A DNA stretch of 11,563 bases from a virus (taxonomy: Duplodnaviria > Heunggongvirae > Uroviricota > Caudoviricetes), in IMG/VR virus record IMGVR_UViG_2627853868_000010; one strand, 5' to 3'. Made by a program: the position numbers and the translations under genes. Below the pieces are notes generated by a model. The model ran no database searches and was not told where the DNA came from. It was given only the letters and a program-made list of their open reading frames with translations. Each line of letters opens with the position of its first letter. Position 1 is the stretch's first letter. Of this stretch, positions 304 through 11,563 are shown piece after piece.

Positions 304-367
304 TATTAGCTCCTTCTGATGCCATTCTATTTCAGGAAGGAGTGTCCGTTAAACTCAGGCTACCTCA
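1..367 (-). mobile_element. IS3-family insertion sequence (IS600-like), partial copy; the rest of the element lies left of the window
   Basis: Positions 1-367 mirror 3694-4060 in reverse complement: same terminus TGAGGTAGCCTGAGTTTAACGGACACTCC (element end at 367) and an identical 100-aa OrfA. The window starts exactly at the OrfA stop codon. Confidence 0.85.
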
Positions 368-642
368 CTCCCTGGCGGATTTTTGCAGCGAATACAGCAA
401 CACAACCGGACGGGCAACGGCTACGCGCTTCGCGTTCCGTCCAGGCGGTTACGTGGATGATTTGAGATTCTCCGGCACTCAGTGCCAGAAAACGCCACAC
501 AAAGGCCGTTTGTGTGTGTACAAGGTGTGGTATATGATTTACAGCAACCATAACGGCTCCTAGTTTACGTTGTTGGTTAGACGCCCCGTATGTGTTCCCA
601 GCACTGCGGGGCGTTGCTCTTTGTATTTCAACAATCCTTTCG

Positions 643-722
643 GTGTGTTTCATGTTATGAGCGCATGAAACACACGTCAAGGCTTTTTGTATTTCTTTTT
701 TTGTGTATACTGAAACACACCG
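643..722 (+). promoter_or_regulatory. Candidate promoter/operator of the RHH gene: 12-bp perfect inverted repeat plus a third half-site over a -10-like hexamer
   Basis: GTGTGTTTCATG (643-654) and CATGAAACACAC (664-675) form a perfect inverted repeat with a 9-bp spacer. TGAAACACAC recurs at 711-720, overlapping TATACT (706-711). AGGAG at 729-733 precedes the ATG at 742. The -35 is weak. Confidence 0.3.
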
Positions 723-741
723 ATGATTAGGAGTTTCAGAA

Positions 742-1047
742 ATGGCAACGGCTAACAAAAACGCAAAATCACAACTGACAACTGTCAGAGTCCCACTAGA
801 TGTTATGCAAGGGATGGAATCCGTTAAGCTGGACGGTGAAAGCAATGCCGGATTTATCGTAACCGCCATGCGCGGAGAAATGGCCCGCCGCCAAGCAGAA
901 GGCAGCGGAGAAAATCCCCTTGTGTCGTCACTGGATGCCCTGGCTAAGGTCGAACAAATCGGCATCAAAGCAGCCGAGGAGATCGGGCAACTCGTCACCG
1001 TCGCGCGTGAAGAACTCCAGCGACGCAAGGTCAAAGAGCATGAATAG
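742..1047 (+). CDS. Ribbon-helix-helix (Arc/MetJ/CopG-like) DNA-binding protein with a C-terminal extension; hypothetical
   Basis: 101-aa ORF with an AGGAG RBS 8 nt upstream. The N-terminal segment TTVRVPLDVMQGMESVKLDGESNAGFIVTAM fits the RHH beta-strand/helix/G-x-S-x-N turn/helix pattern (compare Arc EENGRSVNSEIYQRV). Assigned from motif pattern only. Confidence 0.55.
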   Translation: MATANKNAKSQLTTVRVPLDVMQGMESVKLDGESNAGFIVTAMRGEMARRQAEGSGENPLVSSLDALAKVEQIGIKAAEEIGQLVTVAREELQRRKVKEHE

Positions 1048-1104
1048 CCAATATCAGCGCCATAGTTTGAGGAACGCAGGCGCATTGCTTTACAGGACAG
1101 CACC

Positions 1105-1284
1105 ATGAGCGACACAGAATCAACCAAAACACCATCACCAACTCGTAAGAGACGACGCAAAAATATAGCGCATGAACATGAATCAGAAAGATTCGCACCT
1201 TGTTCGTTTGCTCTTGAGAAATTCCTTAAAGAGCACAGGAAAAAGCTCTCGTTGCAAACCTTGGAACGAACCAAATCTGACTGA
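1105..1284 (+). CDS. Small basic hypothetical protein (59 aa), probably co-transcribed with the RHH gene
   Basis: ATG at 1105 with AGGA about 6 nt upstream; translation MSDTESTKTPSPTRKRRRKNIAHEHESERFAPCSFALEKFLKEHRKKLSLQTLERTKSD; stop at 1282-1284. Too short for the supplied ORF track; a + strand terminator lies downstream. Confidence 0.3.
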   Translation: MSDTESTKTPSPTRKRRRKNIAHEHESERFAPCSFALEKFLKEHRKKLSLQTLERTKSD

Positions 1285-1350
1285 TCACATTGCCCACCAG
1301 CCGCAAATGTGGCATTGTTGGTGATGCTTTTGTTTTCCCTTGTTCCCACT

Positions 1351-1380
1351 GGCGACCCTTTTGCGGTCGCCTTTGTTTTG
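1351..1380 (+). terminator. Rho-independent terminator for the + strand two-gene operon
   Basis: GGCGACC-CTTTTGC-GGTCGCC hairpin followed by TTTGTTTTG. Confidence 0.5.
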
Positions 1381-1959
1381 TCACTGAATGCGGTTACCAA
1401 AGTAAAACTCAGGCTGATATTCACGTATCAGCGTTTTTTCTTCTTCCTCCTGCTCACGCTTTTTGCGCTTACATGCCTGTAGCTCCCTCCCCTTCTCGCT
1501 GGCACTTATTTGATATTGCTCTTTACGGCGGGAAAAATCCTGTAATGCACCCCACGGGATACCATAAGTCCCCGTTTTTCTGATACCTGGTATCACATTT
1601 CTGAATACCCAGTTACTGAAACGATGAGCAAATGTGCCAGGCGTCGTTGCTTTGCGGCTGCGGGCTATTAGTTTGTAGAAACCTGACTCAGAGATAATTC
1701 TCATATTCTGATTTCCTCCTGGGGTGTAAGTTAAATTTACTCCCTTTTCATCATCATCAAGCATCTGCAACGCCGTACGCGAATTGGTTAGTTCCAGCGC
1801 AGCACAAACATCTTTTGCAACAAACCACGGATCGCCGTTCAGATACACCACACGAACGTTCACACTATCAAAGCGCAGAACGACGAGATCACGAATATCG
1901 CAGAATTTTTTCACTGGACGAGCGTACCCCTTGCCCGTCACGGCAATATTTTTATTCAT
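1381..1959 (-). CDS. Bro-N domain protein (phage antirepressor-like)
   Basis: 192-aa ORF; the N-terminal region VVYLNGDPWFVAKDVCAALELTNSRTALQMLDDDEKGV...MRIISESGFYKLIARSRKA...FRNVIPGIRKTGTY matches the Bro-N signature (EPWFVAKDV, DEDEKG, ISESGLY, IRKTG); C-terminal part is charged. Confidence 0.75.
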   Translation of the reverse strand: MNKNIAVTGKGYARPVKKFCDIRDLVVLRFDSVNVRVVYLNGDPWFVAKDVCAALELTNSRTALQMLDDDEKGVNLTYTPGGNQNMRIISESGFYKLIARSRKATTPGTFAHRFSNWVFRNVIPGIRKTGTYGIPWGALQDFSRRKEQYQISASEKGRELQACKRKKREQEEEEKTLIREYQPEFYFGNRIQ

Positions 1960-1974
1960 CGCGTTTTTACCTTA

Positions 1975-2002
1975 TAGACAAAAAACCCCTCGTGATGAGG
2001 GG
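1975..2002 (-). terminator. Candidate intrinsic terminator between alpA and the Bro-N gene (minus strand)
   Basis: On the minus strand, hairpin CCCCTC-ATCAC-GAGGGG (plus 1986-2002) followed by TTTTTGTCTAT, lying between the alpA stop (2016) and the Bro-N start (1959). Confidence 0.45.
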
Positions 2003-2015
2003 CATTATTTACTGG

Positions 2016-2273
2016 TTATTGCTGTTTTGTTTTTCCAGGTTTCCATCCAGGATGCCACTCACCACGGATCCATGCCTGAACCTCTGAAAGTCGATACCCT
2101 GCAGCACGTTCACCGATCTTGATACGTCGCGGGAATTTACCTGCCTGCTCCATTTTCCAGCGTGTTGAGTTTGCCAGCGTGGTAAGTGCTATGCACTCTT
2201 TTTCACGAATGAACCGATCAATGTCCTTCATTGTGCGCAAATCGTTTTCATCAACAAGAGAATAAATTGCCAT
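2016..2273 (-). CDS. alpA: AlpA-family prophage transcriptional regulator (HTH, excisionase-like)
   Basis: 85-aa ORF; ALTTLANSTRWKMEQAGKFPRRIKIGERAAGYRLSEVQAWI matches the AlpA/Phage_AlpA pattern. Its ATG at 2273 is 1 nt from the integrase stop (TGA at 2275-2277). Confidence 0.8.
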   Translation of the reverse strand: MAIYSLVDENDLRTMKDIDRFIREKECIALTTLANSTRWKMEQAGKFPRRIKIGERAAGYRLSEVQAWIRGEWHPGWKPGKTKQQ

Positions 2274-2427
2274 ATCACACCACCTCTTTATTAAGCTCGA
2301 TAACGTTGTTGTTAAATCCTGCTATCGTATTAAGGTAATTAACCCACATATTAAGCACCTCAAGTTTTTTCTTTATATGCCTGCTTTTATTGTAAACACC
2401 AGCAACCCCTTTCACTTTATGACCTAA

Positions 2428-2436
2428 AAGAAGTTC
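2428..2436. repeat. 9-bp target-site duplication AAGAAGTTC of IS1 (left copy)
   Basis: Identical 9-mer at 2428-2436 and 3205-3213, directly flanking IS1. Confidence 0.9.
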
Positions 2437-2451
2437 GGTAATGACTCCAAC

Positions 2452-2955
2452 TTATTGATAGTGTTTTATGTTCAGATAATGCCCGATGACTTTGTCATGC
2501 AGCTCCACCGATTTTGAGAACGACAGCGACTTCCGTCCCAGCCGTGCCAGGTGCTGCCTCAGATTCAGGTTATGCCGCTCAATTCGCTGCGTATATCGCT
2601 TGCTGATTACGTGCAGCTTTCCCTTCAGGCGGGATTCATACAGTGGCCAGCCATCCGTCATCCATATCACCACGTCAAAGGGTGACAGCAAGCTCATAAG
2701 ACGCCCCAGCGTCGCCATAGTGCGTTCACCGAATACGTGCGCAACAACCGTCTTCCGGAGCCTGTCATACGCGTAAAACAGCCAGCGCTGGCGCGATTTA
2801 GCCCCGACGTATCCCCACTGTTCGTCCATTTCCGCGCAGACGATGACGTCACTGCCCGGCTGTATGCGCGAGGTTACCGACTGCGGCCTGAGTTTTTTAA
2901 GTGACGTAAAATCGTGTTGAGGCTAACGCCCATAATGCGTGCAGTTGCCCGGCAT
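2452..2955 (-). CDS. insB: IS1 InsB frame (made as the InsAB' fusion by -1 frameshift)
   Basis: The track ORF 2452-2829 encodes the canonical InsB C-terminal 125 aa ([16 protein letters not shown]...NIKHYQ). The frame extends upstream to about 2955. An in-frame TAG replaces the Trp codon of HYGRW, but this lies upstream of the frameshift site and need not inactivate InsAB'. Confidence 0.7.
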
Positions 2956-3149
2956 CCAACGCCATTCATGGCCATATCAATAATTTTCTGGTGCGTACCG
3001 GGTTGAGAAGCGGTGTAAGTGAACTGCAGTTGCCATGTTTTACGGCAGTGAGAGCAGAGATAGCGCTGATGTCCGGCAGTGCTTTTGCCGTTACGCACCA
3101 CCCCGTCAGTAGCTGAACAGGAGGGACAGCTGATAGAAACAGAAGCCAC
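2874..3149 (-). CDS. insA: IS1 InsA (transposition repressor / N-terminal part of InsAB' transposase)
   Basis: 91-aa [43 protein letters not shown]... (zinc-finger CPSC/CSHC); ends in the A6C frameshift window. Differs from the other copy at several residues (e.g. GVSLNT vs GVGLNT). Confidence 0.9.
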
Positions 3150-3204
3150 TGGAGCACCTCAAAAACACCATCATACACTAAATCAGTAAGTTGGCAGCAT
3201 CACC

Positions 3205-3213
3205 AAGAAGTTC
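3205..3213. repeat. 9-bp target-site duplication AAGAAGTTC of IS1 (right copy)
   Basis: Same 9-mer as 2428-2436. Confidence 0.9.
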
Positions 3214-3757
3214 GACAATATAAGGATCCGCCCCCATATCATTAAGCGTAGTGGAAAATGTGCGCCTGAAATCATGTATGCACCACAAGCCATTAGTATC
3301 ATGACCAAGACGCCTGCATATTCTGTTTGCAGCCCCTGTTATTGTCGCCCTTTGCAAAGCACAACCGACAACATAACCGCGATTTTTTGTTTCTGCGTAA
3401 AGATTAACGATCCATTGTTTTATTCCGTCAGGAACAGGCCTTACTATAGCCTCCTTGTTTTTGCTGTGCTCTTTTGGGACTGTCCATACCCAGTTTTTTA
3501 AATCCCATTCGTCCCAGGTGGATAGCCTCGCCTCCTGCTGTCGGCAACCAAACACCAGGCAGATAACCATTATTCTTCGGTTATATATTGATGACAGAGT
3601 TAGCAAATTATTACCGTAAGCATAAGACCATACATCAGCGGTTTCATTGATATTAAGAACGCGATCCCTTATACCGGATGAGCGCCCGACATATGAGGTA
3701 GCCTGAGTTTAACGGACACTCCTTCCTGAAATAGAATGGCATCAGAAGGAGCTAATA

Positions 3758-4060
3758 ATGAGCAGAAAAAACCAACGTTACTCTAAAGAGTTCAAAGCCG
3801 AAGCTGTCAGAACGGTTCTTGAAAATCAACTTTCGATCAGTGAAGGCGCTTCCCGATTATCCCTTCCTGAAGGCACTTTAGGACAATGGGTTACCGCCGC
3901 CAGAAAAGGGCTCGGTACTCCTGGTTCCCGCACGGTGGCTGAACTGGAATCTGAAATTCTGCAACTGCGTAAGGCGTTAAATGAAGCTCGCCTTGAGCGA
4001 GATATATTAAAAAAAGCAACAGCGTATTTTGCACAGGAGTCGCTGAAAAATACGCGTTAA
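3758..4060 (+). CDS. IS3-family transposase OrfA
   Basis: 100-aa ORF identical to the one at 1-303; AGGAG RBS upstream of the ATG. Confidence 0.9.
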   Translation: MSRKNQRYSKEFKAEAVRTVLENQLSISEGASRLSLPEGTLGQWVTAARKGLGTPGSRTVAELESEILQLRKALNEARLERDILKKATAYFAQESLKNTR

Positions 4061-4938: not shown

Positions 4939-6327
4939 CTATTGCCAGTACACCTCACAGTACATTGACCAGGATTTCGAGCTGTTATTTTTCTCAATTC
5001 GCAGAGCTTTATTGCCGCTGTCATCAACCAGTGTGCGTCTGCCATACATACCGTCCCAGCCATAAGGTTTCAGCTGATTGTCTGTAGCTTTTTTGGCATC
5101 GTAAAAAATTACAGACTCTGAGGTGGTAACCGGCCTGTCTGGAACAACCACCCCGGCAGTACCATTAACAAACGCAGAAGACTTACCCGCGCAGCTCAGA
5201 ATCGCCGTTGCCAGACGGTCGGAAATAATCCCACGGCGAGCCCATGAACTGAAATGGCTCGCCCTGTCCTGTGACGTCCAGGTGGCTGAGCTGTCACGCC
5301 ATTTCGAACCGTAATAACCGATACCCGGAATGTCCGGGTCTTCTTCCGGTTTGTTCGTCGGCACATTCACCCCGTTCTCATCGGTCATGAACGGTACGAA
5401 ATGGATATTCTTTTCCGTTTTATTTTTATAGCTGCCGTACACCGTCTGGTACGTGGATTCGTTCTTCTGCTTCCAGAAATACGTCGTGTCCCCGCATATC
5501 CAGGGAACACCGCCAGCAGAGCCACCGACGCACTGGCCTGCCATATCCGCCAGGTCTGCACGGAATTTATCAACCAGCGCACCAAACTGTGCGGCATGAT
5601 TTGCCGGCGTACCGCCAAAATCAAATTCCCCCTGCATCCACACCACGGCAAACAGCACATTTTTCGGGTTCTTCTCCAGTGCCGCTTTTGTTCGACCGAT
5701 AAGGTCCTTATACAGCGGCTTGTCCACACCCCAGCGGGTTGAATTCTCCGAGGCACCACTCGCGTCACTGTATGTGCCATCAGCTCCGGTGGTGAACGCT
5801 GAACCACCACGACAGCATGGAACCAGCAGAATGCCCGCATTCGCCGGTATAAACGGCAGCAGTTTTTTGGCGATATGCAGCCCCTGCCCCACGGTTCCGT
5901 ACTGCCCCTTTGACAGGTCCGCTTTCGGATGGTTAAGACGGCTCATGTCCTGCACATCATGCAGACAATGGTCCGCCGGAATGATGTCGTTATATTTGCA
6001 TGCTGCACCGCCCGGTGTCACCGTACTGCGACGCGCCAGTTGCTTAATACGCGGGTCCGGACGGTCATATGTCCCCGGCAGCGGAAGGCCTTCACCATAC
6101 GACATGCCGTTTGACTGCCCTGCCAGAACCACAACAAAGTAATACTCCGGGTCGCTGGTGGCGCTGATTACTGCACCTTCTGCTGCAATCGCCTGCATCA
6201 GAGTATAAGGGGTTATGGCCACCGGACTACCAAACGGCTGCCAGCCCTCTTTCAGTTTATGTGTCAGCTTTTCCGCAAGATCTGACGGCGACGCCGCCCT
6301 GACAACATCATAGTGTTTAAAAGCCAT
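4939..6327 (-). CDS. nanS: Prophage sialate O-acetylesterase (NanS-p-like; DUF1737 N-domain plus SGNH/DUF303 esterase domain), 3'-truncated by IS600
   Basis: 462-aa ORF with GGAGG RBS. Motifs VLAGQSNGMSYGEGLPLP, RIKQLARRSTVTPGG, YGTVGQ, LLPFIP, VPCCRGGSAFT, SHFSSWARRGIISDR match NanS/YjhS-type esterases as I recall them. The last 6 codons (CEVYWQ) and the stop are read from the IS600 end (4939-4957). Confidence 0.8.
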   Translation of the reverse strand: MAFKHYDVVRAASPSDLAEKLTHKLKEGWQPFGSPVAITPYTLMQAIAAEGAVISATSDPEYYFVVVLAGQSNGMSYGEGLPLPGTYDRPDPRIKQLARRSTVTPGGAACKYNDIIPADHCLHDVQDMSRLNHPKADLSKGQYGTVGQGLHIAKKLLPFIPANAGILLVPCCRGGSAFTTGADGTYSDASGASENSTRWGVDKPLYKDLIGRTKAALEKNPKNVLFAVVWMQGEFDFGGTPANHAAQFGALVDKFRADLADMAGQCVGGSAGGVPWICGDTTYFWKQKNESTYQTVYGSYKNKTEKNIHFVPFMTDENGVNVPTNKPEEDPDIPGIGYYGSKWRDSSATWTSQDRASHFSSWARRGIISDRLATAILSCAGKSSAFVNGTAGVVVPDRPVTTSESVIFYDAKKATDNQLKPYGWDGMYGRRTLVDDSGNKALRIEKNNSSKSWSMYCEVYWQ

Positions 6328-6521
6328 GAATCCTCCCGGCCGGGATAATATTGTGAGTAAAATGAGGAGCGGGCTGAAGTCCGGAAGTTACAGGACAATG
6401 GCAGAAGAGAGACGACAGCCCGCAATTCGAAAAAGACCGCGCAGTTGCGCAGAGTGATTACTATGGGGTATTATTCGCCAGCTGAAATATTACTTCACGT
6501 TTTGTTGTTTATTCCTTGCCG

Positions 6522-6549
6522 CCCGCGTCTCCCAGCGCGGGCTTTTTTT
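6522..6549 (+). terminator. Intrinsic terminator-like hairpin plus T-tract on the + strand
   Basis: CCCGCG-TCTCCCAG-CGCGGG followed by CTTTTTTT. Confidence 0.4.
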
Positions 6550-6776
6550 GCCCACAAGAAAGCCCCTCCGGAGAGGGGCTGGAGAGTGGCGCTATGTGCC
6601 ATTGCATGGTGCCGGGTGCCTCCCGGTGAATTCAGTACCAGCACCTGAATCCGCGATTATCCCATATACCTACTCGCTGATTGCCCCTCCGCACAGGGGG
6701 ATTCACCATGCCAGTTTCTTTTAACAAACTCCCCGCAAACCAGACAACAGTCAACCGTCTGAATTGTGAGACATTT

Positions 6777-6801
6777 AAAAAAAAAGCCCGCAAAAGCGAG
6801 C
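6777..6801 (-). terminator. Strong Rho-independent terminator just downstream of the tRNA cluster (minus strand)
   Basis: On the minus strand, GCTCGC-TTTT-GCGGGC hairpin (one G-U pair) followed by nine T, starting 15 nt after the 3' end of tRNA-Arg(UCU). Confidence 0.55.
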
Positions 6802-6816
6802 CAGGGAAAATAAGTG

Positions 6817-6893
6817 TGGCGCGTTGTACTGGATTCGAACCAGTGACCGATTGCTTAGAAGGCAATTGCTCTGTCCGGCTGAGCTAACAACGC
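6817..6893 (-). tRNA. argO: tRNA-Arg (anticodon UCU), prophage-encoded
   Basis: Minus-strand 77-nt cloverleaf GCGTTGT-TA-GCTC-AGCCGGACA-GAGC-A-ATTGC-CTTCTAA-GCAAT-CGGTC-ACTGG-TTCGAAT-CCAGT-ACAACGC-G-CCA. Perfect 7-bp acceptor stem, encoded CCA. Gene symbol assigned by position in the cluster. Confidence 0.85.
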
Positions 6894-6906
6894 ATGATGC
6901 AGATAA

Positions 6907-6983
6907 TGGACCGCCATCGGGGACTTGAACCCCGCGCAGCCAGCTTCGAAGGCTGGCGCTCTTTCCTGATGAGCTAATGGCGG
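6907..6983 (-). tRNA. argN: tRNA-Arg (anticodon UCG), prophage-encoded
   Basis: Minus-strand 77-nt cloverleaf CCGCCAT-TA-GCTC-ATCAGGAAA-GAGC-G-CCAGC-CTTCGAA-GCTGG-CTGCG-CGGGG-TTCAAGT-CCCCG-ATGGCGG-T-CCA. Gene symbol assigned by position in the cluster. Confidence 0.8.
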
Positions 6984-6990
6984 TATGTGA

Positions 6991-7066
6991 TGGTGGCCCT
7001 TGCTGGATTTGAACCAGCGACCTGGCGATTATGAGTCGCTCGCTCTCACCACTGAGCTAAAGGGCC
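6991..7066 (-). tRNA. ileZ: tRNA-Ile2 (anticodon CAU, ileX-like; reads AUA after lysidine modification), prophage-encoded
   Basis: Minus-strand 76-nt sequence GGCCCTTTAGCTCAGTGGTGAGAGCGAGCGACTCATAATCGCCAGGTCGCTGGTTCAAATCCAGCAAGGGCCACCA, near-identical to E. coli ileX as I recall it; anticodon loop CTCATAA. Confidence 0.85.
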
Positions 7067-7075
7067 GGGAGCCGC

Positions 7076-7104
7076 ATAATAACGACTCGTAATTAATTCT
7101 TCAA
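7076..7104 (-). promoter_or_regulatory. Candidate sigma70 promoter for the tRNA cluster
   Basis: On the minus strand, TTGAAG, a 17-bp spacer, then TATTAT, ending 9 nt before the 5' end of tRNA-Ile2; the -35 lies directly after the methyltransferase stop codon. Confidence 0.45.
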
Positions 7105-7106
7105 TA

Positions 7107-8124
7107 TCATCCGTTCTGGCTGACTAAATCCTGTACTTCCCGAACCGTCTGCTCAAAACGTTCAGTCTCCAGCTCAACGCCAATTGCACGACGCCCGAGC
7201 GCCAGTGCCGCTTTCACTGTCGAACCCGACCCCATGAAAAAATCTGCAATCAGGTCACCCGGACGACTGCTAGCGCTGATTATCTGCTGCAGCATTTCTG
7301 CCGGTTTTTCGCACGGATGTTTCCCGGGATAGAACTGCACCGGTTTATGCGTCCACACATCGGTATACGGCACCTGCACCGTCACGCCAAAATACCGCCG
7401 CAGATGTTTATATTCACTCAGCAGCTCCGCATACTGCCGGTTCAGTGAGGTATACGTATCCACCAGCTGGTGGTGGAGCTTTTCCAGTTCACCACGCCGA
7501 TGCTTCTCTTCTGCCACCCGGGCAAACAGCGCCTGTAATTTCAGATAATCGCTTTCATTCGGCAACTGCCACTGACTGGCACTGAACCAGTGCGACACCA
7601 TGTTTTTCTTTCCTGTGGCATCTGCAATCTGTTTTGCCGTTATCCCCAGGGCAGCTCGCGCATCACGAAAGTAAGAAATCAGCGGGGCCATCACATGCTG
7701 TTTCAGTGCACTGCCCTTCGCCGCATACCCGGCATCTTTCGGACGATACGGCCCCTGATAATGTTCCGCGAACAGAATGCGCTCTGTGGCGGGGAAATAC
7801 GCCCGCAGGCTTTCCTTGTTGCATCCGTTCCAGCGTCCGGACGGCTTCGCCCAGATAATATGGTTCAGCACACTGAAGCGTTCACGCATCATGATTTCGA
7901 TATCAGATGCCAGGCGATGACCACAGAACAGGTAAAGACTTCCGGCAGGTTTCAGCACCCGCCAGAACTGCGCCAGACACTGGTCCAGCCACTTCAGGTA
8001 ATCATCGTCGCCCTTCCACTGGTTATCCCAGCCCTCAGGCTTCACTTTAAAGTACGGCGGGTCCGTGACTATCAGGTCAACAGAATTTTCGGGTAACGAC
8101 CAGATAAATTCCAGGCAGTCGGCG
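7107..8124 (-). CDS. DNA N6-adenine/N4-cytosine methyltransferase (beta-class; DPPY precedes FxGxG), prophage Dam-like orphan MTase; native 5' end removed by IS1
   Basis: Native coding sequence starts at the IS1 junction with ADCLEFIWSLPENSVDLIVTDPPYF (motif IV) and ends with DLIADFFMGSGST...GRRAIGVELE (motif I). No native start codon remains; the frame stays open upstream through IS1/IS2 sequence to 8282. Confidence 0.8.
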
Positions 8125-8142
8125 GGTAATGACTCCAACTTA

Positions 8143-8147
8143 CTGAT
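8143..8147. repeat. 5-bp target-site duplication CTGAT of IS2 (left copy; right copy at 9479-9483)
   Basis: CTGAT immediately flanks both IS2 ends; both copies lie within IS1 terminal sequence. Confidence 0.85.
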
Positions 8148-8238
8148 TAGACTGGCCCCCTGAATCTCCAGACAACCAGTATCACTTAAATAAGTGATAG
8201 TCTTAATACTAGTTTTTAGACTAGTCATTGGAGTACAG

Positions 8239-8604
8239 ATGATTGATGTCTTAGGGCCGGAGAAACGCAGACGGCGTACCACACAGGAAAAGATCGCAAT
8301 TGTTCAGCAGAGCTTTGAACCGGGGATGACGGTCTCCCTCGTTGCCCGGCAACATGGTGTAGCAGCCAGCCAGTTATTTCTCTGGCGTAAGCAATACCAG
8401 GAAGGAAGTCTTACTGCTGTGGCCGCCGGAGAACAGGTTGTTCCTGCCTCTGAACTTGCTGCCGCCATGAAGCAGATTAAAGAACTCCAGCGCCTGCTCG
8501 GCAAGAAAACGATGGAAAATGAACTCCTCAAAGAAGCCGTTGAATATGGACGGGCAAAAAAGTGGATAGCGCACGCGCCCTTATTGCCCGGGGATGGGGA
8601 GTAA
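8239..8604 (+). CDS. insC: IS2 transposase OrfA (InsC)
   Basis: [56 protein letters not shown]... matches IS2 InsC as recalled; ATG at 8239. Confidence 0.9.
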
Positions 8605-9467
8605 GCTTAGTCAGCCGTTGTCTCCGGGTGTCGCGTGCGCAGTTGCACGTCATTCTCAGACGAACCGATGACTGGATGGATGGCCGCCGCAGTCGTCACA
8701 CTGATGATACGGATGTGCTTCTCCGTATACACCATGTTATCGGAGAGCTGCCCACGTATGGTTATCGTCGGGTATGGGCGCTGCTTCGCAGACAGGCAGA
8801 ACTTGATGGTATGCCTGCGATCAATGCCAAACGTGTTTACCGGATCATGCGCCAGAATGCGCTGTTGCTTGAGCGAAAACCTGCTGTACCGCCATCGAAA
8901 CGGGCACATACAGGCAGAGTGGCCGTGAAAGAAAGCAATCAGCGATGGTGCTCTGACGGGTTCGAGTTCTGCTGTGATAACGGAGAGAGACTGCGTGTCA
9001 CGTTCGCGCTGGACTGCTGTGATCGTGAGGCACTGCACTGGGCGGTGACTACCGGCGGCTTCAACAGTGAAACAGTACAGGACGTCATGCTGGGAGCGGT
9101 GGAACGCCGCTTCGGCAACGATCTTCCGTCGTCTCCAGTGGAGTGGCTGACGGATAATGGTTCATGCTACCGGGCTAATGAAACACGCCAGTTCGCCCGG
9201 ATGTTGGGACTTGAACCGAAGAACACGGCGGTGCGGAGTCCGGAGAGTAACGGAATAGCAGAGAGCTTCGTGAAAACGATAAAGCGTGACTACATCAGTA
9301 TCATGCCCAAACCAGACGGGTTAACGGCAGCAAAGAACCTTGCAGAGGCGTTCGAGCATTATAACGAATGGCATCCGCATAGTGCGCTGGGTTATCGCTC
9401 GCCACGGGAATATCTGCGGCAGCGGGCTTGTAATGGGTTAAGTGATAACAGATGTCTGGAAATATAG
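8562..9467 (+). CDS. insD: IS2 transposase OrfB (InsD; DDE catalytic domain)
   Basis: 301-aa [33 protein letters not shown]...WLTDNGSCY...[12 protein letters not shown], matching IS2 InsD as recalled; overlaps insC in the -1 frame. Confidence 0.9.
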
Positions 9468-9979
9468 GGGCAAATCCACTGATAGTGTTTTATGTTCAGA
9501 TAATGCCCGATGACCTTGTCATGCAGCTCCACCGATTTTGAGAACGACAGTGACTTCCGTCCCAGCCTTGCCAGATGTTGTCTCAGATTCAGATTATGTC
9601 GCTCAATGCGCTGAGTGTAACGCTTGCTGATAACGTGCAGCTTTCCCTTCAGGCGTGATTCATACAGCGGCCAGCCATCCGTCATCCATACCACGACCTC
9701 AAAGGCCGACAGCAGGCTCAGAAGACGCTCCAGTGTGGCCAGAGTGCGTTCACCGAAGACGTGCGCCACAACCGTCCTCCGTATCCTGTCATACGCGTAA
9801 AACAGCCAGCGCTGACGTGATTTAGCACCGACGTAGCCCCACTGTTCGTCCATTTCAGCGCAGACAATCACATCACTGCCCGGTTGTATGCGCGAGGTTA
9901 CCGACTGCGGCCTGAGTTTTTTAAGTGACGTAAAACCGTGTTGAGGCCAACGCCCATAATGCGTGCACTGGCGCGACAT
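9392..9979 (-). CDS. insB: IS1 InsB (copy 2) with its stop codon lost to the IS2 insertion; the ORF reads 31 extra codons into IS2
   Basis: 195-aa ORF ...[44 protein letters not shown]...NIKHYQ followed by [28 protein letters not shown] read from the IS2 right end. The native InsB part is 9479-9979. Confidence 0.8.
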
Positions 9980-10173
9980 CCGACGCCATTCATGGCCATA
10001 TCAATGATTTTCTGGTGCGTACCGGGCTGAGAGGCGGTGTAAGTGAACTGTAGTTGCCATGTTTTACGGCAATGAGAGCAGAGATAGCGCTGATGTCCGG
10101 CAGTGCTTTTGCCGTTACGCACCACGCCTTCAGTAGCGGAGCAGGAAGGACATCTGATGGAAATGGAAGCCAC
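9898..10173 (-). CDS. insA: IS1 InsA (copy 2, divergent isoform)
   Basis: 91-aa [43 protein letters not shown]...; differs from the copy at 2874-3149 at several residues. Confidence 0.9.
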
Positions 10174-10228
10174 GCAAGCACCTTAAAATCACCATCATAC
10201 ACTAAATCAGTAAGTTGGCAGCATTACC

Positions 10229-10476
10229 CGCTCGACGAGTGGAAACCAAAACGGTTCAGTCTCCCAATAACAAACACTACCCTGGTGAAATACGGAAAAC
10301 TAGGATACATCGTTCCAAGACCACAAAAAATTCGTGGGCGTTGGCTGATAGATCGCCGAGCAGTATTTGTTGGGCCTGGTGAAACGGGAATTGCGCCGGA
10401 AATTCATACTGGCGATGATGATGCACTGAAGGAGATTTTAACTCATGTCACCGAGGCCACAAAAAAACAGCACTGA
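10229..10476 (+). CDS. xis: Lambda-type excisionase (Xis)-like, 5'-truncated at the IS1 junction
   Basis: Native sequence from 10229 reads (P)LDEWKPKRFSLPITNTTLVKYGKLGYIVPRPQKIRGRWLIDRRAVFV..., which aligns with lambda Xis (MYLTLQEWNARQRRPRSLETVRRWVRECRIFPPPVKDGREYLF) as recalled. About 4 N-terminal codons and the start are missing. The 3' end overlaps the int start as in lambda. Confidence 0.55.
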
Positions 10477-11563
10477 CGTAGCCGGTCTTTACGAAAAGTT
10501 TGATCGCAGAACTGGCAGAGTTTACTACCAGTATAAAAATCCTGTGACTGGAAAATTTCACGGACTCGGAACAGACAAAGGTAAGGCAGAAAAAATCGCT
10601 TCCACAGCCAATCAGCGAATAGCTGCAGCAGAAGCTGAATATTTCATGCGCAAAATTGATGAAAGTCCGTCAGCAACAAAACGTCGGGGTATCAGATTAA
10701 AGGCATGGGTTGATCGATATCTGAAAATACAGGACACGCGACTGAAAAATGGAGATATTGCAGCTACAACTCACAAAGAAAAAACTCGAATGGCTGCATA
10801 CCTAGTTTCCCGTCTGGGAAACCACCCATTGAAAGAACTGGAAGTAAGAGACTTTGCATTAATACTGGATGAGTGGCTGGATAAAGACATGGTCAGCACA
10901 GCGAGAGTAAATCGTGGATTATGGGTTGATATTTATAAAGAAGCACAGCATGCAGGGGAAGTTCCTCCTGGATGGAATCCTCCGGAGGCTACCCGTAAAC
11001 CGATCCCTAAAGTAACCAGAGCCAGGCTCACCATGGAAGACTGGCAAAAAATTTACAATGCAACGCCTGAAAAACACTTTATCCGTAACGCAATGCTTCT
11101 TGCGATTGTTACTGGTCAGCGCCGTGATGACATTTGCCACATGCGTTTTTCAGATGTGTGGAACGAACACTTGCATATCACCCAGGGAAAAACCGGAATG
11201 CGTCTGGCGTTACCGCTTACACTACGCTGTGATGCCATTGGGATAACGTTAAAAGAAGTTATTGATGGGTGCCGAGACAGAATATTAAGTCCATATCTAA
11301 TCCATAGTCGGCACCAGAAACAACCGAAGCCGATGAGTAAAGACAACCTGAGCGACTACTTTGCCAAAGCACGGGATCTGGCTGGGATAATTCCACCAGC
11401 AGGAAAAACTCCGCCAACATTTCATGAACAACGCTCTCTATCAGAACGGCTGTACCGTGCACAGGGTATCGATACAAAAACATTACTAGGACATAAAGTC
11501 CAGGCAACCACCGATCGCTATAACGATACTCGAGGTCAGGAATGGGTTAAGCTGGTTATTTGA
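10445..11563 (+). CDS. int: Lambda-family tyrosine integrase (site-specific recombinase), complete
   Basis: 372-aa ORF with AGGAG RBS. N-terminal YYQYKNPVTGKFHGLGTDK, central LAIVTGQRRDDICHMRFSDV, and C-terminal PPTFHEQRSLSERLY...LLGHKVQATTDRYNDTRGQEWVKLVI match lambda/HK022 Int (R, H-x-x-R, LLGH, catalytic Y) as recalled. The window ends at its stop codon. Confidence 0.9.
   Translation: MSPRPQKNSTDVAGLYEKFDRRTGRVYYQYKNPVTGKFHGLGTDKGKAEKIASTANQRIAAAEAEYFMRKIDESPSATKRRGIRLKAWVDRYLKIQDTRLKNGDIAATTHKEKTRMAAYLVSRLGNHPLKELEVRDFALILDEWLDKDMVSTARVNRGLWVDIYKEAQHAGEVPPGWNPPEATRKPIPKVTRARLTMEDWQKIYNATPEKHFIRNAMLLAIVTGQRRDDICHMRFSDVWNEHLHITQGKTGMRLALPLTLRCDAIGITLKEVIDGCRDRILSPYLIHSRHQKQPKPMSKDNLSDYFAKARDLAGIIPPAGKTPPTFHEQRSLSERLYRAQGIDTKTLLGHKVQATTDRYNDTRGQEWVKLVI

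Follow-up and report, generated by a model that had tools for sequence, protein, structure and literature searches.

The DNA analyzed here is a stretch of 11,563 nt from a virus of the Caudoviricetes (IMG/VR record IMGVR_UViG_2627853868_000010), which is called the window throughout. Between positions 368 and 2273 it carries alpA, an open reading frame (ORF) with a Bro-N domain and, on the opposite strand, an ORF for a protein resembling ribbon-helix-helix (RHH) regulators followed by an ORF for a basic protein of 59 aa. These four ORFs had been listed in a preliminary description of the region, and all of them are present with the coordinates given there. Likewise, the operator-like palindromes described upstream of position 742 are genuine repeats, and the plus-strand terminator placed behind the 59-aa ORF is an intrinsic terminator. 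Absent from that description were an Icd-like ORF, a terminator between alpA and bro-N, insertion sequences (IS) and a long antisense open frame. With these elements included, positions 364–3693 probably represent the lysogeny/induction control region of a Gram-negative phage-inducible chromosomal island (PICI), with a candidate RHH repressor, a predicted antisense RNA and a frame resembling P4 eta. The features of the region are as follows.

360–551, minus strand: Icd-like ORF, first gene of the satellite replication operon
363–1427, minus strand: stop-free eta-like frame of 1065 nt, in frame with the icd-like gene
528–538, plus strand: candidate −10 element TGGTATATGAT of an antisense RNA, inside icd-like codons 5–8 (consensus reading only)
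545–628, plus strand: predicted structured RNA covering, in antisense, the start codon and Shine-Dalgarno (SD) sequence of icd-like; stem-loop SL1 at 546–578 with an anti-SD CUCC in the loop, stem-loop SL2 at 580–615, then a U-rich tail
643–652, 666–675 and 711–720: candidate operator half-sites GTGTGTTTCA/TGAAACACAC, found by repeat search
about 687–696: degenerate operator copy, fitting the spacing of the set (~22 bp)
652–680, minus strand: predicted leftward promoter of the icd-like/primase operon, −35 TTGACG at 680–675, −10 TAACAT at 657–652, 17-bp spacer
706–711, plus strand: −10 element TATACT of the RHH gene, abutting half-site 711–720
742–1047, plus strand: RHH-like ORF of the YlcI/YnfO family, 101 aa (ORF and NCBIfam match)
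1105–1284, plus strand: arginine-rich basic ORF, 59 aa, placed on the same transcript as the RHH gene (ORF and PHROG match)
1351–1371 (up to 1381 in its widest extent), plus strand: intrinsic terminator of the RHH operon; L002, a related locus, keeps the hairpin with a different loop
1381–1959, minus strand: Bro-N domain ORF, 192 aa (ORF and Pfam match)
1985–2003 (1977–2003 in its widest extent), minus strand: strong intrinsic terminator in the alpA/bro-N interval, with 26 nt from its end to the bro-N ATG
2016–2273, minus strand: alpA, 85 aa, of the PICI activator/excisionase family (ORF and Pfam match)
2275–2437 and 3205–3693, minus strand: pieces of a P4-type integrase remnant (alignment to the intact copy L001)

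Positions 368–2273 were found over their full length with 99.9% identity in 55 complete E. coli genomes, and a blastn search with the RHH/59-aa segment (560–1380) gave at least a partial match in 1865 of 5426 complete E. coli genomes. The intact copy L001 is an element of ~10.8 kb, 99.9% identical, which resides within the portal gene of a lambdoid prophage. The two halves of the portal gene (5679–6452 and 17298–18179) lie around the element, and all genes are on one strand, the only opposite-strand operon in these elements being that of the RHH gene (plus the 59-aa ORF). The gene order is P4-type int (Pfam domains Arm-DNA-bind_3 and Phage_integrase), alpA, Bro-N, opposite-strand YlcI/YnfO and 59-aa ORF, Icd-like, three small ORFs, DUF4222, D5-type primase, single-strand binding protein (SSB), capsid E, decoration protein, a second AlpA-family gene and Nu1-like terS. 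Gram-negative PICIs display the same order of int, alpA, Bro zone, Icd-like, DUF4222, primase, SSB, capsid and terS-like genes (PMC6092414, PMC10111431). Their division into integration, Bro, replication and late zones, as well as a helper-embedded type, has been described by Tommasini et al. (PMC10111431), so that the kind of element and the zone are known already. Helper-embedded PICIs lie within a prophage late gene and are co-oriented with it, and the L001 element has this position and orientation in its host prophage; in the window the junctions were erased by IS600, and the helper-embedded position is seen in L001 only. An int gene with a co-oriented alpA, characteristic of Gram-negative PICIs, is found in the window as alpA and int remnants. 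An own primase, a size of ~10–15 kb and few late genes are found in L001 and deleted in the window. Helper-dependent induction, excision and packaging have been demonstrated experimentally for relatives such as EcCICFT073 (PMC6092414).

The preliminary description had placed the genes in the cargo position of a P4-like island. The satellite context of a P4-type integrase followed by alpA was confirmed, while the integrase itself is a wreck broken by IS elements, and the element is a PICI. None of the P4 genes sid, delta, psu and epsilon was annotated or detected in L001, which shares with P4 only int, alpA, primase and the Icd-like domain. The supposed cargo position corresponds to the conserved integration zone and Bro zone of Gram-negative PICIs (PMC10111431). 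In the model PICI EcCICFT073 the layout is int, alpA, a 57-aa ORF, YlcI, Icd-like and primase, with the same YlcI/57-aa ORF/Icd-like arrangement. A common layout int-alpA-[variable]-YlcI/YnfO-Icd-like-primase therefore links the window, EcCICFT073 and other Enterobacterales; the arrangement recurs outside Escherichia in Xenorhabdus, Photorhabdus, Enterobacter, Pantoea, Lelliottia and Serratia. Both the RHH gene and the operators belong to the conserved core, as they are present in EcCICFT073 and in seven genera beyond Escherichia. The matches in E. coli genomes, together with the layout shared with EcCICFT073, indicate that the region is core regulatory DNA of a very common satellite and not cargo.

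In contrast to functional PICIs, the copy in the window is dead. Window segments 364–2437 and 3205–3693 align to L001, with an IS1 (2438–3204) in between that interrupts the integrase gene. The N-terminus of the integrase is cut by IS600 at 3693/3694, and at the other end the last three icd-like codons are replaced by IS600 at 367/368, the L001 alignment starting at 364. Inverted IS600 copies thus removed both satellite ends, and primase and late genes were lost. By these alignments, positions 364–3693 without IS1 are an IS-degraded fragment of a Gram-negative PICI.

The 101-aa protein matched the NCBIfam model YlcI_YnfO_N (NF041551; E=6.5e-16). The earlier statement that no named product could be recognized thus holds for function, the family being uncharacterized, and not for the name. 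The gene is preceded by an AGGAG SD sequence (729–733), and its frame has the lowest pN/pS value among the six frames (0.31). Homologues were found only in Enterobacterales, with none in 50,697 phage records. An AF2 model (pLDDT 80) contains helices at residues 19–28, 35–55 and 59–100, in agreement with a domain plan of a predicted N-terminal RHH-like DNA-binding domain and a long C-terminal helix. The C-terminal half is almost invariant across RHH types, while residues 9–18, the presumed DNA-reading strand, vary blockwise; the proteins of EcCICFT073 and locus L005 lack the whole C-terminal domain. Matches to Pfam PF07704, an Rv0623-like antitoxin family of the RHH clan, stayed below threshold and were obtained with 20 of 25 homologues. 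The helix pattern fits that of RHH proteins, in which an N-terminal β-strand is followed by two helices and the dimer inserts a two-stranded sheet into DNA. With hhalign, the β-strand came into register with those of Arc and Mnt at low probability, and fold searches with the 101-aa protein gave nothing significant. Membership in the RHH fold is likely but not established. Of the previously proposed Arc/MetJ-like character, the behavior of an operator-binding RHH-type regulator is retained and a significant fold match is missing. Residues 45–86 showed a weak profile match to the helix-hairpin-helix (HhH) domain of archaeal Hef (E=0.018); the AF2 model has one long helix at these residues.

The candidate operator set upstream of the RHH gene consists of ~10-bp sites spaced ~22 bp apart within 643–720. 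Exact copies of the motif are confined to 643–720 in the 30-kb L001 locus, and none was found near bro-N or alpA of this intact locus. The half-sites occupy the spacer of the leftward promoter and cover its transcription start. A leftward promoter of this form was found in 14 of 17 loci, and 16 of 17 have a TAnnnT hexamer of the RHH promoter at −36 or −35 from the ATG. Comparison of the loci revealed nine types of RHH β-strand, each of which goes with a repeat motif of its own, always placed alike relative to a conserved TTGAC −35 sequence:

QLTTVRVP: motif GTGTGTTTCA (window, L002 and five Xenorhabdus/Photorhabdus loci)
QMKNIRFP: motif CTGTAcAtACAC
QTVAARVP: motif GTGTTGAACAC
QSLTARIP: motif GTGTAAGac
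QIKNVRV/IP: motif GTGTGCAT / GTGTGTATT
KVQARAP: motif ACTGGATTCCA
QQLNARFP: motif TGGTATTCA (out-of-sample)
KQISIRIP: motif TGAATCACA (out-of-sample)
QALKARVP (EcCICFT073): motif GGTGTGGCCCAC (out-of-sample)

The three types labeled out-of-sample were added later, and each of them displayed a new motif in identical geometry. From the co-variation of strand and motif and from the position of the sites over both the leftward and the RHH promoter, we infer that the RHH protein is an autoregulated repressor of the icd-like/primase operon existing in several specificity types. It is probably the immunity repressor of the satellite.

An intact copy of the Icd-like protein matched the NCBIfam model phage_ICD_like with E=1.2e-17. 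The start of its gene is overlapped on the opposite strand by the two hairpins of the predicted RNA, and the CUCC in the SL1 loop is the complement of the icd-like SD sequence. Segment 545–628 has a minimum free energy of −33.6 kcal/mol (z=−4.5). Across 14 loci, 96% of the hairpin pair cells are standard pairs when read on the plus strand compared to 82% on the minus strand; the cells include 47 G·U against one A·C, and eight pairs carry changes in both partners. None of the shuffles came up to these values. A TAnnnT hexamer is located 6–12 nt before the antisense of the icd-like ATG in 14 loci, despite divergent Icd N-termini. No Rfam family matched the structured RNA, and the hairpin module occurs neither in P4 nor in a PICI without an RHH gene. 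These observations point to a cis-antisense RNA of ~80 nt that would block icd-like translation, with promoter and 3′ end as predictions. Alternatively, the hairpins could be part of a long leader of the RHH mRNA.

On the minus strand, the stop-free path of 363–1427 starts from the 3′ end of bro-N, crosses the 59-aa ORF and the RHH gene in antisense orientation and continues over the promoter region. Exactly one minus frame was stop-free in each of the 19 RHH-cassette loci scanned (19/19), over 645–1590 nt, whereas the remaining two minus frames have a stop every 30–100 nt. The frame starts at the end of the preceding gene, which is alpA or Bro-N/Ant. In 15 of the 19 loci it shares the reading frame of icd-like; in the remaining four it stops ≤40 nt short of the icd-like ATG. 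After dinucleotide shuffling, the left non-RHH flank stayed open in 0.5–8% of trials; for the right flank the value was ≤0.7% in 15 of 17 loci and 6–8% in the two where this flank is shortest. In L002 and L005 the frame opens with AGGGGAG-n3-ATG right after alpA. Databases often annotate it as an 'Icd-like protein' of 300–500 aa, at times fused to Bro-N, and the exact protein of the long ORF is found in a Shigella flexneri record.

The designation eta-like is based on the arrangement in P4, where Eta consists of an Ash domain and an Icd-like domain. As with P4 eta/kil, a long ORF lies next to an alpA-family gene and is in frame with a short Icd-like gene. BLASTP of the long ORF against P4 Eta yielded nothing significant; the link consists of the shared Icd-like domain model and of 83% DNA identity between 1284–1380 and the start of an 'ash family' gene. 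This gene start (3501–3597) belongs to L023, a PICI without an RHH gene. Within the similar segment, 1290–1330 (plus strand), located 3′ of the 59-aa ORF, is conserved, and a hairpin at 1300–1313 contains a G·T pair that fits the plus strand only. We infer that it is translation of the long frame on transcripts from upstream that matters, and not its product.

Between alpA and the RHH gene, different elements carry Bro-N, AntA/B or nothing. The antirepressor-like nature of the Bro-N protein proposed earlier was supported by matches to Pfam Bro-N (E=4e-20) and to PHROG 2593, annotated as anti-repressor (E=2e-84). Its Bro-N domain is 55–60% identical to the N-terminal domains of phage Ant proteins, while the tail differs. 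The proposed linkage of RHH and Bro-N was not borne out: the same Bro-N cassette accompanies three RHH types, two of which also occur without Bro-N. By this distribution, Bro-N is an exchangeable cassette of the Bro zone and not tied to RHH type. L017 has a terminator equivalent to that between alpA and bro-N with a different stem sequence, and loci without Bro-N have no such terminator. With a terminator ahead of its gene, Bro-N is probably made only on read-through, for instance during Q-modified late transcription of the helper.

The alpA product matched Pfam Phage_AlpA (E=5e-14) and PDB 8c3t, an AlpA-family phage regulatory protein (E=1.3e-7). In the window subtype, the alpA ATG follows the int stop codon by 1 nt. 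Many relatives have the Rfam int-alpA RNA (RF02996) between the two genes (L004 7109–7176; L007 10326–10394; L008 4504–4572; L009 10224–10291; L013 10770–10838; L015 9842–9911), and it is absent from the window subtype, in which alpA abuts int. A role of AlpA as Q-like antiterminator, after P. aeruginosa AlpA (PMC7969949), is speculative; the window AlpA matches only PDB 8c3t, and the P. aeruginosa paper mentions neither Pfam nor CP4-57. The second AlpA-family gene of L001 (8305–8688, minus strand, 127 aa) lies in the late zone, between the decoration protein gene and Nu1-like terS.

The two-gene operon of RHH and 59-aa ORF was confirmed as far as the presence of both ORFs is concerned. The only family match of the 59-aa ORF was the unannotated PHROG 21027 (E=5e-15). 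Escherichia relatives keep the ORF open, an indel among them preserves the frame, and pN/pS values are 0.2–0.6; it may encode a genuine small basic protein. Two other open frames overlap it, and homologues are restricted to Escherichia. Its overlap with a conserved frame and its absence outside Escherichia make its status as a gene uncertain. When loci were compared, RHH gene and 59-aa ORF did not consistently occur together: 11 of 18 loci lack the small ORF 3′ of the RHH gene, namely 10 non-Escherichia loci and L018, which indicates that it is not a universal partner.

These elements can be assembled into a model of the switch, in which every mechanistic step is drawn from comparative sequence analysis. 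What the sequences show directly is homology and architecture, conservation of the frame, and co-variation both of motif with protein and within the RNA. That the protein binds DNA and represses, that the RNA exists, that the long frame is translated and in which order the events take place is deduced. In the quiescent island, RHH protein bound to four ~10-bp sites would cover the leftward promoter and its own promoter and keep the replication genes off. The operator types of the RHH protein would define immunity types. An ~80-nt plus-strand RNA with an anti-SD loop would block icd-like translation in addition. Induction would come from upstream transcription, starting at the alpA promoter, a known target of activation by helpers, or, in helper-embedded copies, provided by the late transcript of the helper. 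Such a transcript would contain the long frame, which passes the RHH gene on the antisense strand and reaches icd-like. Translating this frame would probably protect the transcript, oppose RHH expression and bypass the blocked icd-like start, as in P4 eta/kil, with Bro-N as an accessory read-through product. The stronger version, in which YlcI/YnfO is the missing master or immunity repressor and is overprinted in a translated eta-like frame whose translation constitutes induction, is put forward only tentatively and seems doubtful at present. If true, a three-layer switch of protein, cis-antisense RNA and bypass ORF would stand in place of the RNA-only immunity of P4. Translation of the frame, brought about by AlpA or helper late transcription, would shut off the repressor gene through convergent expression while bypassing the antisense-RNA lock on the first replication cistron, and the RHH specificity types would be satellite incompatibility groups.

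Several observations weigh against the interpretation as a control region. The operon to be controlled is deleted in the window. Assignment to the RHH fold comes from the sub-threshold Pfam matches and low-probability hhalign results, the antisense promoter is represented by a conserved −10-like hexamer only, and the U-tract of the terminator is interrupted. Furthermore, given the protein, it is not unusual for an antisense frame to be open across the RHH gene: synonymous resampling of the RHH codons gave P=0.07–0.33, weak per-locus support for avoidance of antisense stops. Support for the long frame must therefore come from the non-RHH segments on either side. A low pN/pS of the long frame is expected because the overlap is wobble-aligned and third codon positions coincide. 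Outside its RHH-antisense and Icd-like parts the product is of low complexity and not conserved. Finally, the loci are related by descent and counts across them are not independent.

Four other explanations were compared with a control region. Many database records annotate the 300–500-aa ORF over the short genes and the frame is conserved, as would be expected if the long 'Icd-like' ORF were the sole real gene and YlcI/YnfO and the 59-aa ORF non-coding shadows. However, it is the RHH frame that has the lowest pN/pS, a conserved SD sequence, −10 element and terminator, a match to a curated family model and N-terminal residues co-varying with DNA repeats, and with a low-complexity long product in addition we regard this explanation as extremely improbable. 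A type II toxin-antitoxin or addiction pair, with the RHH protein as antitoxin and the basic peptide as toxin, would account for a bicistronic operon with the RHH gene first, autoregulatory repeats at the promoter and the weak Rv0623-like antitoxin matches of the homologues. The distribution of the 59-aa ORF argues against such a pair, which was rejected on co-occurrence: the ORF is Escherichia-only and missing from the loci mentioned above, while EcCICFT073 and L005 keep a small ORF despite RHH proteins without a C-terminal domain. As Pfam and NCBIfam scans of the ORFs gave no toxin family match either, a toxin-antitoxin function is very unlikely.

Somewhat less improbable, but still quite unlikely, is the cargo function favored in the preliminary description, which regarded RHH, 59-aa and Bro-N as accessory anti-phage or helper-interference genes wired like P22 immI (arc/mnt-ant). 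Bro-N families are annotated as anti-repressors, gene content between alpA and RHH differs between elements, satellites carry defence hotspots (PMC9122126), and the C-terminal RHH domain, conserved across types, could be the target of an antirepressor. On the other hand, RHH gene and operators are core, Bro-N is found with several RHH types and two of them do without it, and the operators lie at the divergent icd-like promoter with none near bro-N, which contradicts immI logic. PADLOC defence models had no match to any of the five proteins of the region. Replication or copy-number control of the excised replicon is an unlikely though more serious candidate. In plasmids such as pMV158 (CopG and RNAII) and R1 (CopB and CopA), an RHH or small repressor at the replication promoter is combined with an antisense RNA over the leader or translation start. 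The same two layers are seen here, with a candidate RHH repressor at the promoter and a predicted antisense RNA where translation of the first cistron of a tightly coupled replication operon begins. There is no sequence relationship, though, and the repressor gene here is divergent and lies antisense within another frame. The cassette takes the slot that a C4-type immunity RNA has in P4 and L023, and its several operator specificities resemble immunity types. Copy control and the role of a maintenance or immunity repressor are not mutually exclusive.

The control region can be compared to two known immunity systems. In the P4 immunity region (vis - eta/kil - CI RNA - epsilon - alpha), an AlpA-family gene is likewise followed by a long ORF ending in an Icd-like domain, with a shorter nested ORF, a promoter internal to the long ORF and then a primase operon, as here. 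In P4, translation of eta prevents immunity-specific termination. The sister PICI L023 has a P4-type cassette with an ash-type ORF and C4 and isrK RNAs in the same slot, and P4 also carries both RNAs there. In contrast, the region studied here has no C4 or isrK RNA, no other credible match to a known RNA family and no Ash domain; an opposite-strand protein gene and a cis-antisense RNA are found instead, and sid, delta, psu and epsilon are lacking. C4/isrK RNA (Rfam) was absent from the window, L001 and 17 of 18 other RHH-cassette loci, with P4 and L023 as positive controls scoring 75–76 bits. L003, an E. coli PICI, has the RHH cassette and further downstream a second Icd-like gene with a C4 RNA and its a1b1 targets (3320–3781, 3539–3626 and 3694–3743), and since it carries both cassettes, two immunity cassettes can be stacked. 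P22 immI likewise comprises a small RHH-type regulator, Mnt, with an RHH domain and C-terminal helix similar to those of the present protein, an Ant-family gene nearby and an antisense RNA over a ribosome-binding site. In contrast to immI, the RHH operators here would control a divergent replication operon and not the Bro-N gene. Similarity of Bro-N to phage Ant proteins is confined to the N-terminal domain, and there is no link between Bro-N and RHH type.

In Gram-negative PICIs, AlpA has been described as helper-induced activator and the global repressor as 'unclear' (Fillol-Salom 2018, PMC6092414). In the text searched, PMC6092414 and PMC10111431 do not mention the YlcI/YnfO gene, operators, an antisense RNA or an overlap with a long frame; one of them calls the genes unidirectional and the other the repressor unclear. 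YlcI/YnfO, Icd-like and BRO figure as accessory PICI genes without assigned function in PMC13612085, and the literature searched assigns no repressor role to the YlcI/YnfO gene. The candidate repressor, the antisense RNA and the long overlapping frame thus appear to be undescribed.

PICIs are among the commonest mobile elements in enterobacteria and carry virulence and defence genes between strains. A candidate repressor with readable operators makes the question of how PICIs are silenced testable. The specificity types could predict which satellites exclude one another and provide orthogonal repressor/operator pairs. The antisense-embedded gene is also a clean natural case of overlapping genes, with a frame kept open across seven genera beyond Escherichia, and the overlap explains the conflicting annotations as either a 300–500-aa 'Icd-like protein' or YlcI plus a short Icd. 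The window itself holds only a satellite remnant that is dead, lies in an IS-rich genome, probably that of a Shigella, and shows no sign of a defence system.

The window is dense in IS elements (1–367, 2438–3204, 3694–~4930, 8194–9467 and 9392–10202). Two inverted IS600 copies flank the remnant, and an IS2-like element and a second IS1 are present; the IS1 within the satellite integrase is bordered by a 10-bp duplication. No complete E. coli genome has the same IS arrangement. Positions 4939–8282 (minus strand) contain a late-region remnant of a lambdoid, Stx-phage-like prophage with a DUF1737+SASA esterase (NanS-p-like), an STnc100 RNA (6550–6740), an N6/N4 DNA methylase and tRNAs Arg/Arg/Met (6817–7066); there are no toxin genes between the tRNAs and the esterase. 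A lambda-type integrase (10445–11563, plus strand; Arm-DNA-bind_1 and Phage_integrase), unrelated to that of the satellite, runs past the end of the window. Among the related loci, L007 from Photorhabdus asymbiotica carries a CRISPR repeat array (CRISPR-DR4; 9–276) at its primase-side end, ~7 kb from the RHH gene.

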